This document shows positions 8,202-64,000 of a DNA stretch of 64,000 nt, one piece after another (within the stretch, counting starts at the first letter, position 1; the number at the start of each line of letters is the position of its first letter). Both the position numbers and the translations under genes were made by a program. The DNA is from Candidatus Hadarchaeales archaeon. Its GTDB lineage: Archaea > Hadarchaeota > Hadarchaeia > Hadarchaeales > Hadarchaeaceae. Under the pieces are notes generated by a model. The model did no database searches, was not told the DNA's origin, and saw only the letters and a list, made by a program, of their open reading frames with translations. The stretch is taken from assembly GCA_038851075.1 (NCBI GenBank), contig JAWCLG010000003.1, forward strand, positions 40,973 through 104,972, given 5' to 3'.

Positions 8202-9068
8202 TCACGAAATGGTGCCACCGCCGGAGCCGTCCATGGACAGGGTAGCAACAACCCAGTCATAACCATACGTTGTCTCAAAAGATGTTTCTATTGTCTGATC
8301 TTCGTATCCGAAGGTGTGCCTGAACACTCTCTCCGTTCCCTCCGCTATCCTTATCCTAACCGTGGCCTCTGTGTTTTCTTGGACCCCATTTGCCGAATAA
8401 TATCTGACCTTGACAATGTAGTTGCCCGCCCTGGCGCTCTGCATGGTAAAGTGCTCCGGACCGTACCCGTTTACATCGTCCACATCAAGCTCGGCCCCCG
8501 GTATGCCACTTTTATTTCCATAATAGCAGTGATTCATGTCGGGATCCCACACATGGAGATCGACATCATTATAGTCTGTATTCCACGTTAACTGAATCCA
8601 TATGTCCATCGGAGGGATATCCGCATACACTGTGAAGACATCGCTCTGCGCAGCGGTATTGCCTTGCAGGTCTCTCACGATTATCCTGAAGGTGTTGGCC
8701 CCCCTAGTTAAAACACGTGTTTCATAAAAAATCCATTCATCGCTCACATATGAAACCGGAATCTCCTCCTCCTGACCATTGAACACCAGATAAACAGTGC
8801 CAGCAAACTCCTGCGTGTTTCCGGCATCCGGATTTTCTACTGTGCCCGATATGCGCTGGATCCTCTGACCTGTAGTTCCACCGTTCGTGATCAGGTTTCC
8901 TTCGGCATCGTAAAGTCCTGTTATAACCGCGTTGCCGAAGCTTCCTCCTCCACCGCCACCGCTGCTCACTGCAACCAAAACAACGGTGACCGAAACTGAA
9001 ACTACTATAATCACCACTATTACGGCAATGAGAACGGGTGCGAATCCACTGTTTTCAATTTTAACCAT
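8202..9068 (-). CDS. Membrane-anchored YfaP/DUF2135-like protein
   Basis: N-terminal hydrophobic anchor; LTWNTDYNDVDLHVWDP...LDVDDVNGYGPEH motif; likely start MVKIENSG at 9068. Confidence 0.75.
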   Translation of the reverse strand: MVKIENSGFAPVLIAVIVVIIVVSVSVTVVLVAVSSGGGGGGSFGNAVITGLYDAEGNLITNGGTTGQRIQRISGTVENPDAGNTQEFAGTVYLVFNGQEEEIPVSYVSDEWIFYETRVLTRGANTFRIIVRDLQGNTAAQSDVFTVYADIPPMDIWIQLTWNTDYNDVDLHVWDPDMNHCYYGNKSGIPGAELDVDDVNGYGPEHFTMQSARAGNYIVKVRYYSANGVQENTEATVRIRIAEGTERVFRHTFGYEDQTIETSFETTYGYDWVVATLSMDGSGGGTIS

Positions 9069-9239
9069 TTCATCTATTATAGCAGTCATCAGGCACAATA
9101 TAAACATATCCCCACGTTCGCGTTTTAGCAAAATTCAAGTATTCCAGCTCATTTTTTCGATATCAAAACTCAGAGATGAAAAACGCATTTAGCGATTCAG
9201 CGATTCTGTGCAATCAAATGAGTGGTGCCCGGGTTCAGG

Positions 9240-9339
9240 TGGCGCCCATCGGCGGAGCGTTTAACTCCTTGGCCGGGATTTGAACCCGGGGCGGAGCCTC
9301 GACAGGGCTCCATGTTGGTCCGGTCTACACCACCAGGGC
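9240..9339 (-). tRNA. tRNA-Asp(GTC) with 22-nt BHB intron in the 3' acceptor strand (68/69; 9248-9269) and encoded CCA
   Basis: GAGCC-CT GTC GA-GGCTC arm; removing AGGAGTTAAACGCTCCGCCGAT gives CCAGGGC-G-CCA, perfectly complementary to 5' GCCCTGG. Confidence 0.9.
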
Positions 9340-9423
9340 ACCGGTTTGAACTTAAGTATGGGGACTTTAAACCTTTAACGCCGGAAACCACAAATTTTGC
9401 TCCAGAATAAATCGACATCTTAG

Positions 9424-9547
9424 TGGTTGGCAGCGTATCGGGCTTCCCGCCGGCTTGCGCACGGCAGTACAACCTCGATCGCTGGCGGGCTTAACTTCCG
9501 GGATCTGACGGGACCGGGTGTCACCCCGCCGCTATGGCCGCCAACCA
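9424..9547 (-). rRNA. rrf: 5S rRNA (stand-alone, within tRNA cluster)
   Basis: GGTTGGCGGCCATAGCGG...CCGGAAGTTAAGCC...GTACTG...GGGAA...CGCTGCCAACC, paired ends, ~122 nt. Confidence 0.95.
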
Positions 9548-9588: not shown

Positions 9589-9706
9589 TGGTCCCGCGGG
9601 GGAGATTTGAACTCCCGACATGTCGGTTCCTATCTTTTTTGGGTCTCTGGCCCGCCTTCCATATGGCGAACAGCCGACCACTCTAACCAGGCTGAGTTAC
9701 CGCGGG
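9589..9706 (-). tRNA. tRNA-Tyr(GTA) with two introns: 35/36 (9647-9669) and 37/38 (9628-9644)
   Basis: C1:G72 and A73 (archaeal Tyr identity), encoded CCA; 47-nt anticodon loop reduces to CT GTA GA after two BHB excisions. Confidence 0.88.
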
Positions 9707-9739: not shown

Positions 9740-10849
9740 TCATCCCATGAACACGTGCAGTCTTCTCAGGGCGTCCAGTTTTTCTCTTTGCCCGATACCG
9801 GCAGATTTAACCGCATCTCCCAGAATTTCTATCGTTCTCTGATAAGTTATTTTGTCTACCGGGTATGGAACACCGTCCTTACCTCCATGTGCGAAGCTGA
9901 ACTTTACAGGGTCTTTCCATGAGGGCGGTTTTCCGTAAATTAGATCGGAAACTAGCGCCAGCGCTCGCACGGCTTTTGGACCTATACCGCGGATGGCAAC
10001 AAGCCCCTCGTAGTTCTCGGGCTGAAGCTCGTATGCTCTCTGCAAAGCCGCGAGCGTTTGCTCCGTCAGCTTAGTTATCGCGTGAGAGGTTGGCATCACA
10101 AGCTTCGGCACTTTGGGACTTCTTTGATCAAAATATTCATCGAGGGAGCGCTGTTCCGCCTCGCGCACGTATGGCAGCAAACGCTTCGGGTTGTCCCGAA
10201 CCAAATCTACGCAGGTCTTGCGCGTTTCTTCACTATCCCGCGCGGTCATGTCCAACACCACTTCCTCGCTTCGGTCACCAATGATTCCAGAGTGAGGTTC
10301 CTCCACGAAACTTTTCACCCCTTCGAAGAGCCAGTGGTAACGCCTGGCCATTTGCCCGTGCATCCCCTGCTGTATCACCGCCCAGTCTCCGTTCTCTGTG
10401 AAAATGAAAACGTGATGATAAAGCTGATAACCATCTTGGACGCAGGCGCTGTCGACCTTTGCAGCCATCCTGCTCGCATGCTTTAACCTATCGATCGTAT
10501 GCGAGGAGAGGGAGAAAACATCACCGGCCCTTTCAATTTCCTCAGGCGTGAGTCTCGATGTTCTTCCCTTTCCTCCGCACACGGATATCCCAAGCTCCTC
10601 CGGTCTTATCGCCTCTTTCAGAGCCCCACAAACGGTCGTTGTAAGTCCGGAGGAATGCCAGTCAAAACCGAGGGTGCATCCAAGAGCCTGAAAGAAAAAA
10701 GGATCCCCGATTCTTCTCAAAAATTCCTCTTGACCATACTCAAGAACTATCGCCCGACATATTGCTTCGCTAAGGCATTTCATTCTCTTGAAGAGCCACG
10801 GCGGACATCTCCCTCCGTGAAGGGGCAGTTCAGCGATACCGGATTTCAT
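9740..10849 (-). CDS. DUF763 family protein
   Basis: LPLHGG..PPWL, GFDWHSSGLTT, FAHGGKDGVPYPV; start MKSG at 10849. Confidence 0.88.
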   Translation of the reverse strand: MKSGIAELPLHGGRCPPWLFKRMKCLSEAICRAIVLEYGQEEFLRRIGDPFFFQALGCTLGFDWHSSGLTTTVCGALKEAIRPEELGISVCGGKGRTSRLTPEEIERAGDVFSLSSHTIDRLKHASRMAAKVDSACVQDGYQLYHHVFIFTENGDWAVIQQGMHGQMARRYHWLFEGVKSFVEEPHSGIIGDRSEEVVLDMTARDSEETRKTCVDLVRDNPKRLLPYVREAEQRSLDEYFDQRSPKVPKLVMPTSHAITKLTEQTLAALQRAYELQPENYEGLVAIRGIGPKAVRALALVSDLIYGKPPSWKDPVKFSFAHGGKDGVPYPVDKITYQRTIEILGDAVKSAGIGQREKLDALRRLHVFMG

Positions 10850-10931
10850 CAGAAAGCACGTGTAGTTTGAAAAAGATAAATCTAATATCAAATAGGCTGT
10901 GGAACGCAGGTCCGCTGTTGAAAGCATGGAG

Positions 10932-62116: not shown

Positions 62117-64000
62117 ATGATATCGCTAGGTGGAATAAAGCAAATCGACGAGGTCCGCTGGGAGATTCCACAGGATTACAAGCGCGGCATGAGAGTTCCA
62201 GCGCGCATCTACGCTGACGCCGATATGCTGAACGAGATGCGCAAAGACCTAACGCTCGAACAGGCCGCAAATGTGAGCTTCCTGCAGGGCATCTATAAGT
62301 ATTCGATAACACTCCCCGATGGGCATCAGGGCTATATGAGCCATGCTTAGGCATGCTCAGGCTAAGGATTCCCCATCGGTGGAGTTGCCGCCACAGATGC
62401 CGAAACTGGCGTCATCAGTCCTGGGGGAGTCGGGTATGATATCAACTGCCTTCCGGGAAATAGCAAGGTTTTGACATCCCTCGGGTACCGAACCAAAATC
62501 GAAAAAGTTTGCCTGGGAACCCGTGTGGCCGTACTAAATCAAAACCACGCCAAGCCTGCTGAAGTTATTTTGACACTCAACAGGGATGAGCATACCCTAC
62601 AAAAAATCAAGACAGGTGCGGGGTTCGAATTGATTTCCACCTTGGACCATCCAATTCTGACCAGAGAAGGCATGAAAGAGGCCTGGAAACTCTCATTAGG
62701 CGAAGAGGTTGGGATTCACCCATTTGAAGGCGTTGAGTATGAAGATCCGAAGGAATTTGAGATCTTATCGGAAAAAAACTTCAGGGGAGCTGTCATAGAG
62801 GAGTTAAAGAAACGGAAGTTGCTGCCCCTCACTTCTAAAAACGAGAAGCTGCCGTATATCGTAAAAATATTCGGTTACCTGCTGGGAGACGGAGTCATCT
62901 ACGACAAATATGTGGTGTTTTACGGCGAGAGGGCTGATTTGGAGGATATATCAAGAGACATACAAATTTTGGGATATACGGGCGGAGTATATGAAAGACG
63001 GCGGGAACACCACGTCAAAGGATACAACTTCACCAGAAACGAGACCTTTTTGAAGGTTTCTGCCAAGAGCCTTGCCGAACTTATGTGGGCGCTTGGTTAC
63101 CCAAGAGGAAACAAAACTAAAACAGATTTCTGTGTTCCAGCATGGCTGCTTAAACTGCCAAAGTGGCTGAAAAGACTCTTTTTGGCTGCATATTTCGGGG
63201 CTGAGATGTCTAAACCAAAAACTATGAACGGCTACAACTTCTACATGCCAGAGATAAAACTATCTAAAAAGAAAGGAAATGAAAAGAACGGTCTAGAGTT
63301 TCTGCAGCAGCTACAGGAGATGCTCAAAGAGTTTGGTGTGGATTCAACTCTTTCCATAGCCGAGGAAACAGGGAATAGCGTGAGTTTTAGAGTTTTAATT
63401 AAAGGAGATCTTGAAAATCTAACCAAACTGTGGTCCCAAGTAGGATACGAATACAATAGGAAACGAAGAGAACTCGCCATGGCAGCCGTCGTCTATCTAA
63501 AATTAAAACAGGCCATCATCAACGAAAGGGAGCGCCTGAGGGAGAAAATACGGGAAGAACGTGGAAAGAGCGGTGACAACGAGCTATTGCGAAAATATCG
63601 AGATACTATCAACAAAAAATTCGTTGAAAGTCTGTACGAGAAAACTAAAGGGGCAAGGCCACCCACGCGCTACATGAAATTTGAAGAGTTCGTGAAGAGG
63701 TTTTCGGAGGGGGAAATTGTTTACGATAGAATCGTGCAGATCGAGAGGCTCGAACATCGGGGCCGTGTGTATGACTTCACGGTCGATAATGAGAACCACA
63801 ACTTCGTTGCGGATTCTTTTGTGGTTTCGAACTGTGGCGTACGCCTGCTGCGGACAGATTTGAACTCCTCCGACGTTAAGCCAAAACTACGCCAGCTCGT
63901 CGAAACCCTCTTCCGAAACGTCCCTTCCGGGCTCGGAAGCACCGGACACATGAAACTCACACCGGCCCAACTCGATCAGGTACTGGAGAACGGGGCGAAA
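62117..64000 (+). CDS. rtcB: tRNA-splicing ligase RtcB, interrupted by a 30-nt putative intron and an intein; 3' end beyond window
   Basis: MRVPARIYA...LPDGHQGY (to 62335) | GFPIGGVAA...SPGGVGYDIN (62366-62446) | intein | CGVRLLRT...PSGLGS. Confidence 0.93.
62336..62365 (+). other. Putative BHB-type mRNA intron in rtcB
   Basis: ATGAGCCATGCTTAGGCATGCTCAGGCTAA; in-frame TAG and TAA; internal hairpin; GGCU/GGCU central helix with AU^A and AA^G bulges. Confidence 0.8.
62447..63832 (+). mobile_element. Intein (462 aa) with LAGLIDADG-type homing endonuclease, inserted at RtcB DIN|CGVR
   Basis: Block A CLPGNSKVLT, block B TLDHPILT, IFGYLLGDG and FLAAYFGAE motifs, block F/G VYDFTV...HNFVADSFVVSN/C. 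Confidence 0.93.

Follow-up and report, generated by a model that had tools for sequence, protein, structure and literature searches.

We consider it very probable that the tRNA-Asp(GUC) gene of this Hadarchaeales archaeon is functional, that it carries a 22-nt BHB intron at site 68/69 which would be spliced out by EndA and RtcB, and that the sequence transcribed beyond its 3' end, the trailer, favours the fold in which splicing can take place. At the level of sequence, the insert is confirmed as a real intron, of the known BHB kind, in an otherwise intact tRNA-Asp. The intron is thus a known kind of element at a rare site, and the trailer helper is the undescribed part.

The gene lies on the minus strand at 9339-9240 of the window (the whole 64,000-nt stretch of DNA that was analysed), with G1 at 9339, and direct reading of the sequence places the interruption 8 bases from the gene end. 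The features on which our argument rests are the following, in the direction of transcription.

9425..9545, minus strand: 5S rRNA, directly upstream of tRNA-Asp (Rfam); the order 5S, then tRNA-Asp, is found in carriers and non-carriers of the intron
9340..9342, minus strand: leader GGU, able to pair with the trailer or with G73-C75 (folding)
9270..9339, minus strand: 5' exon of tRNA-Asp(GUC), positions 1-68, 70 nt, ending in CCCGGCCA (positions 61-68) (sequence, ARAGORN, Rfam)
9281..9290, minus strand: predicted target of the trailer, namely the variable-loop end, the T-stem 5' strand and the first T-loop bases (CCCGGGUUCA) (duplex search, folding)
9272..9277, minus strand: exon side of the BHB, C61-C62 (helix h) and C63-C66 (helix H); in the mature tRNA, T-stem 3' strand and first acceptor base
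9248..9269, minus strand: 22-nt BHB intron at site 68/69 (sequence, motif, chance control, stem restoration)
9254..9268, minus strand: inner helix h' (GGAGU/GCUCC) and its 5-nt loop, with compensatory changes at pairs 1, 3, 4 and 5
9250..9253, minus strand: intron side of helix H, GCCG; all 16 genome carriers and 44 of the 45 distinct metagenome inserts have GCCG or GUCG here
9240..9247, minus strand: 3' exon of 8 nt (GGGCGCCA), made of G69-C72, the discriminator G73 and an encoded CCA; unchanged in 16/16 genome carriers
9224..9237, minus strand: candidate trailer helper; UGAACCC(GGG) complements the T-stem 5' strand and T-loop, GGGCACC complements leader GGU and G1-C4

Read linearly, the unspliced 3' end of the gene is CCAAGGAG, and the acceptor stem has five of seven Watson-Crick pairs; without the 22 nt all seven form, followed by the Asp discriminator G73 and CCA. 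The preliminary description had proposed just this broken and restorable stem, and its coordinates for the insert (22 nt at 9248-9269, site 68/69) agree with our own reading. Removal of the insert gives a 7/7 acceptor stem, G73 and CCA in every one of the 16 genome carriers, and ARAGORN reports a 78-nt tRNA-Asp from the intron-free sequence in 13 of them, those without a further intron. The native gene behaves differently, and the expectation that standard scanners would truncate it holds for both programs used here: ARAGORN calls a linear tRNA-Asp at 9264-9340, and the Rfam tRNA model matches 9265-9339 with 38.0 bits. Two other interrupted genes score 38.5 and 40.9 bits, and intron-less orthologues (n=3) 54.6-56.2 bits. 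As set out in part of the tRNAscan-SE 2.0 paper (PMC8450103), that program extends its candidates by 60 nt, a step aimed at introns close to the ends of genes. That ordinary gene finders mis-call such genes bears on the "missing" tRNAs reported in uncultured archaea, and the arrangement itself means that a separate mini-exon can supply the last eight bases of a tRNA, including the identity-bearing discriminator and the CCA.

tRNA-Asp is the third gene of a row on the minus strand, after a tRNA with a 43-nt insert (9706-9592) and the 5S rRNA. Its exons are colinear, 22 nt apart and on one strand, which is not the layout of a split or permuted tRNA gene, and inserts of 19-32 nt do not have the character of self-splicing group I or II introns; Rfam intron families gave no match between 7500 and 10500 of the window. 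Among the neighbour genes, searched with Pfam, no homing endonuclease or integrase adjoining tRNA-Asp was found. It is the single tRNA-Asp, with exons conserved across 7 genera, which does not fit a tRNA pseudogene; no second tRNA-Asp was found in the genome studied (G000), whose assembly is 88% complete. The row is followed by a gene for a 309-aa membrane-anchored protein (8205-9131, minus strand) with weak Ig-like matches, and preceded by one for a DUF763 protein (9743-10927, minus strand; 443 bits in Pfam).

Together with its flanks, the insert folds into a strict hBHBh' motif. C61-C62 pair with G70-G71 as the outer helix h (CC/GG), C63-C66 pair with the intron GCCG as the 4-bp central helix H (CGGC/GCCG), and the inner helix h' is GGAG/CUCC, lengthened to 5 bp by a U-G pair. 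Between them lie two bulges of 3 nt each, CA|A and AU|G, with the junction after the second base of each. All the helices and bulges named in the preliminary description are therefore present, and its reading of a BHB intron at 68/69 is borne out by the strict motif in 16/16 carriers and by compensatory changes in h'. In the canonical intron of tRNA-Ile(GAU) in the same genome, read by eye, the 37/38 junction likewise follows the second nucleotide of both 3-nt bulges. The precursor cannot hold the BHB and the cloverleaf at once, because H takes up three bases from the 3' strand of the T-stem.

How often such a motif arises by chance was estimated from 3,000,000 random pairs of position and length (15-40) in the genome studied. 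The strict motif with an h' of at least 4 bp occurred in 160 of them (5.3e-5), and with an h' of at least 3 bp in 406. Because the need to rebuild the stem fixes the position and length of the insert independently of the motif, the chance of finding a strict motif there is about 5e-5. Covariation points the same way. Across 13 distinct genome sequences, pair 1 of h' occurs as GC, GU or AU, pair 3 as AU or GC, pair 4 as GC or CG, and pair 5 as four types. H varies less, being CGGC/GCCG in the 16 genome carriers with a change from G-C to G.U in two and no other variation. Among the 45 distinct metagenome inserts H is kept in 44, pairs 1-3 of h' are paired in all, with frequent AU/GC switches, and pair 4 is paired in 41. 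The h' and H pairs were counted by a bulge-anchored script, as the MAFFT alignment misregistered h' in two rows. The outer helix has only 2 bp, made of invariant exon bases, and hence is uninformative for covariation.

The search of relatives suggested with the original observation found the intron at 68/69 in 16 of 66 Hadarchaeota genomes (7 genera, one family) and in 58 metagenome stretches, counts that overstate independence, since the carriers are related to each other. A further 24 of the 66 genomes have a tRNA-Asp without the insert (22 sequences read, 2 judged from the match range only), and tRNA-Asp was not found in the remaining 26; rows L024-L026 and L028-L030 were excluded because they are tRNA-Glu, not Asp. 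The 16 genome carriers reduce to 13 distinct sequences, with introns of 19-22 nt and the strict motif in all. The metagenome stretches, recovered by an exact-pattern scan of contigs, hold 45 distinct inserts of 19-32 nt; GGGCGCCA was part of the search pattern, so that the constancy of the 3' exon there is uninformative. DNA of the genome studied occurs in four hot-spring metagenome DNA runs.

The 27-32-nt class of inserts comes from far more divergent tRNA-Asp genes, with up to three further inserts. One of these long-intron contigs encodes an aRF1 whose best named relatives are Bathyarchaeia, at 62-67% identity, and which is 47% identical to the aRF1 of the genome studied; a restriction-modification methylase of the same class was uninformative as a taxonomic query. 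Because that one contig carries a Bathyarchaeia-like aRF1, the site 68/69 is, as judged from its placement, occupied in at least two phyla, Hadarchaeota and a Bathyarchaeia-like lineage. Within Hadarchaeota the distribution is patchy, and genera g8, g9 and g11 contain both intron states. An RpoB tree implies at least eight changes of intron state over the 39 rows with known state, although this tree (a quick search with one gene and 55 rows, in which other families are nested inside family f1) is too unreliable for counting gains and losses.

Of the machinery that such an intron calls for, RtcB (601.9 bits) is encoded in the genome studied, as is the RNA of RNase P (208 bits). In the assembled 88% of G000 no EndA turned up: Pfam PF01974 and PF02778 gave sub-threshold matches only, and tblastn with the same-genus EndA and its two flanking genes found none. 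One sub-threshold EndA candidate proved to be the ORF of a HAD-type phosphatase. Because both genes that flank the same-genus EndA are also missing from G000, the EndA locus probably lies in the unassembled 12%. Among 41 relatives, 38 have an EndA, same genus included, where it is 179 aa long, and the five genomes checked show a single gene with an open frame of 176-199 aa; one bin holds two copies, 89% identical, which look like two strains. The relatives' EndA is closest to that of M. kandleri and to the homotetrameric enzyme of M. jannaschii. The strict hBHBh' motif seen in all genome carriers is what a strict EndA needs. In the sections of Kaneta et al. 2018 that deal with Hadesarchaea (PMC5829648), their EndA is described as alpha4-type with an extra loop, alongside many strongly disrupted tRNA genes, a picture with which G000 agrees, as 18 of its 40 ARAGORN tRNA calls bear an insert.

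If the intron is of a familiar kind, what follows the gene is less so. Three nucleotides after the CCA, at 9237-9224, lies UGAACCCGGGCACC. The first ten bases of this segment are exactly complementary to C-CCGGG-UUCA, a target that runs from the last base of the variable loop through the T-stem 5' strand to the fourth base of the T-loop; the last seven complement the leader GGU and G1-C4. These are the very strands left partnerless once the BHB forms. We scored this complementarity with a test of the duplex that the 45-nt trailer can form with a 14-nt stretch whose end lies in the T-loop, a locus passing when its value is reached by at most 5% of 300 shuffles. Thirteen of the 16 genome carriers pass versus 1 of 22 intron-less orthologues, with the apparent pairing inflated by the optimiser that chooses the duplex; in the one passing intron-less locus, the next tRNA gene begins inside the trailer. 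Three genome carriers fail the 5% threshold and four more barely pass (0.043-0.05); for L008, one of those that fail, the probe spans a T-arm insert. The metagenome loci behave similarly, with 15/17 short-intron and 26/34 long-intron loci passing; among those that fail (two short-intron, eight long-intron), four of the eight have a T-arm intron, which makes the probe the wrong one.

The pairing is also constrained in position and in sequence. It starts 2-12 nt after the CCA in 55 of 59 distinct sequences, and over these 59 compensatory pairs occur at three target positions. At one, for instance, the pair is C-G in 20, A-U in 26, G-C in 2 and U-A in 1; at another it is C-G in 45, U-A in 7 and U.G in 6. 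Genus g11 has a variant of its own, where the trailer repeats the acceptor 3' strand almost perfectly; its partners are the leader and G1-G7, and its base opposite leader position -1 covaries with that position. A reading of the trailer as solely a clamp against the acceptor strand was considered and is largely superseded: that pairing passes the 5% shuffle mark in 14/16 carriers versus 6/18 non-carriers, and pairing with the T arm is preferred as the better discriminator between the two groups. G000 has both pairings.

Folding models suggest what the trailer could do. We forced either the cloverleaf-like or the BHB pairs and left the rest free, for 29 distinct one-intron loci with their natural 45-nt trailers. 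The mean of E(BHB) minus E(cloverleaf) at 37 C is -11.8 kcal/mol with the trailer and +0.8 without it, and at 70 C it is -9.0 with and +1.1 without. In these models the natural trailer thus tips the precursor from the cloverleaf to the BHB form, the shift being in this direction in 29/29 loci. Shuffled trailers give a mean of -1.7 at 70 C, and in 26 of the 29 loci the real value lies beyond all 20 shuffles. Free ensembles at 70 C, computed for 13 carriers (both they and the constrained folds left out the three carriers with a second intron), behave likewise: adding the trailer takes the G1-C4/G69-C72 pairs from a probability of 0.80 down to 0.04 and H from 0.27 up to 0.48, while the outer 2-bp helix stays low, at 0.09-0.15 even with the trailer. 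For the G000 precursor the free MFE structure does not coincide exactly with the strict BHB fold, and unconstrained MFE folds are heterogeneous between loci, in nearest-neighbour models that contain no proteins, modifications or tertiary contacts.

Put together, these elements suggest the following path. The precursor would leave the cloverleaf so that both 3-nt bulges face EndA, with the T-stem 3' strand and C66 paired to the intron GCCG (H), C61-C62 paired to G70-G71 (h) and the intron hairpin serving as h'. The trailer, by pairing with the 5' strand of the T-stem and with the T-loop (some lineages adding the leader and 5' acceptor strand), would favour this splicing-competent fold, or tether the tiny 8-nt 3' exon, or do both. 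We infer that EndA would then cut at both bulges, after A68 and before G69, and that RtcB would seal the tRNA body to the 8-nt 3' exon. Splicing would precede 3' trimming, and once the trailer is cut off the cloverleaf is predicted to be the better fold again. This order gains indirect support because a conserved, covarying trailer stabilises the BHB in the models and 3' trimming would remove it. If the trailer helper is real, it answers how a BHB that melts the T-stem can form in a molecule that prefers the cloverleaf, it explains how a very short exon stays put at high temperature, and it fixes the order of processing, splice then trim.

A different division of labour, which we judge rather unlikely, is that the trailer helix does not create the BHB at all and acts mainly after cleavage, holding the 8-nt exon for RtcB, or as a quality control that keeps the unspliced precursor from folding as a tRNA, so that it is passed over by RNase Z, the CCA enzyme or AspRS. 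At hot-spring temperature the 3' exon would otherwise be held by the 2 bp of h or the 4 bp of G69-C72 with G1-C4, to which the trailer adds 7-14 bp of pairing with the tRNA body, and the trailer of genus g11, which mostly complements the leader and the 5' acceptor strand, would tether rather than open the T arm. However, most lineages target the 5' half of the T arm, exactly the strand that the BHB sets free. The models cannot tell a tether from a folding switch, and both may hold.

The origin of the trailer raises another alternative, that the intron is real and spliced and the trailer is a relic of a tRNA 3'-end duplication, or of a tRNA-targeting integrative element, with no role in splicing. 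The trailer does look like a degenerate repeat of the 3' end of its tRNA: its sequence is similar to the T-stem 3' strand joined to that of the acceptor stem and ends in A-CCA in G000 and in G001, and a decayed duplicate of the tRNA 3' end is a plausible origin for it. In intron-less orthologues the sequence 3' of G73 is unrelated to that of carriers, a change right after G73 that is expected of recombination at a tRNA 3' end, and since this difference covers their entire 3' flank, one replacement event could account for the joint absence of trailer and intron. A strict BHB could, moreover, in principle be cut unaided by any archaeal EndA. But covariation of the trailer extends to T-loop bases 54-58 and the variable-loop end, which is not expected of a mere 3'-end copy; the trailer persists in a second phylum beside different intron sequences; and natural trailers move the modelled balance far more than shuffled ones. 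We consider a trailer without function improbable.

The remaining alternatives concern the gene itself and are much weaker. An assembly that is 88% complete and the low Rfam score of 38 bits would suit a decaying or non-functional tRNA-Asp copy with a chance insertion, the working tRNA-Asp lying in the unassembled 12%, but this is highly improbable: in 16 genomes from 7 genera the tRNA-Asp found is this same interrupted gene, placed after the 5S rRNA, with intact exons, an invariant 3' exon and covarying intron helices, and G000 yielded no second tRNA-Asp. Recognition by RNase P, AspRS and elongation factor is generally at odds with an interrupted acceptor helix, and retention of the insert in the mature tRNA as an extra acceptor-arm hairpin is still less credible, since although the insert does form a hairpin, such a hairpin would have no use for a GCCG that complements the T-stem 3' strand or for 3-nt bulges in junction register, both of which are conserved, and it would clash with those three.

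A spliced intron aided by its trailer leads to a broader proposition, to which we give an even chance: tRNA introns embedded in stems may rely on a surrogate strand that is transcribed from beyond the gene, the trailer here switching the fold, tethering the exon and forcing the order splice, then trim. If true, this would be a general, undescribed design rule, given the conservation and covariation seen in Hadarchaeota and a Bathyarchaeia-like lineage, and it would explain how a strict single-subunit EndA handles introns embedded in stems.

The system has to be set against several that are known. Like the non-canonical BHB introns of Thermoproteales, Thaumarchaeota, DPANN and Asgard archaea, the tRNA-Asp intron is short, has two 3-nt bulges around a 4-bp helix and lies outside 37/38; as with them, exon-intron pairing competes with the cloverleaf, and the intron is presumably cut by EndA and sealed by RtcB. 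Unlike them, it lies in the 3' strand of the acceptor stem, leaving a last exon of 8 nt, in Hadarchaeota with a single-gene (alpha4-like) EndA, and its trailer is predicted to pair with the displaced T-arm strand. A parallel to a helping sequence outside the gene is found in the split tRNA halves of Nanoarchaeum equitans and Desulfurococcales, whose extragenic sequences, the trailer of one half and the leader of the other, pair, hold the pieces and build the BHB for EndA (PMC4090602); a 13-14-bp stem adjoining the BHB is mentioned in PMC3218864. Unlike those, the tRNA-Asp gene is in one piece, and its helper would pair with the T arm and acceptor strand, not with a partner's leader, and outside the BHB itself. 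The Hadesarchaea of Kaneta et al. 2018 share with our genomes the lineage, one EndA gene per genome and many interrupted tRNA genes, and the main text of that paper (PMC5829648) makes no mention of a tRNA-Asp intron at 68/69 or of trailers.

The preliminary description was not aware of an intron at 68/69. Non-canonical archaeal BHB introns are placed at positions such as 20/21 to 59/60, with 3/4 in the acceptor stem called extreme, in the relevant section of Yoshihisa 2014 (PMC4090602), and a 2026 preprint on Asgard archaea has a few acceptor-stem inserts. We found no mention of a tRNA intron at 68/69 in literature text, although catalogues of intron positions such as Sugahara 2008 or Marck and Grosjean 2003, and published supplementary tables, may already list it. 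The intron itself is common in metagenomes, with its 58 stretches. Nor did literature text yield a report of a trailer that opens the T arm or aids a BHB.

Several observations touch on these genes without bearing on the argument. Four intron-less tRNA-Asp genes of genus g8 (L016, L022, L107 and L108) have G73 followed by TCTC and encode no CCA, their 3'-flank homology stopping right after G73, whereas the carriers of the same genus encode the CCA. L008, from the same-genus sister genome G001, has a T-arm insert of about 29 nt (at about 1560-1590) besides the intron at 68/69; a T-arm insert with similar borders is also seen in L192 and L204, two Bathyarchaeia-like loci.

Other tRNA genes of G000 are also interrupted. 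The 43-nt insert of the tRNA upstream of the 5S rRNA (9592-9706, minus strand; 50.3 bits in Rfam) lies in the anticodon region, and ARAGORN misreads this gene as tRNA-Pro(agg), its anticodon looking like GUU. Inserts outside 37/38, in the D loop or D arm, near position 9 or in the variable region, are seen at C4:26569-26656, C6:23879-23948, C7:17395-17488, C23:2817-2933 and others, and the Gly, Asn, Tyr, Met and Ala-UGC isoacceptors are missed or mis-called by ARAGORN. Besides a full-length RtcB elsewhere in the genome, a second RtcB-like gene (62261-64000, plus strand) runs off the end of the window and contains an intein with a LAGLIDADG domain (Pfam). Between its HQGY and GFPIGG codons lies a 30-nt insert (about 62336-62365) with an in-frame TAG and TAA; read by eye, it shows a 4-bp helix with two G.U pairs beside a long hairpin, with no outer helix seen, and it may be a BHB-type intron in the splicing ligase's own mRNA.
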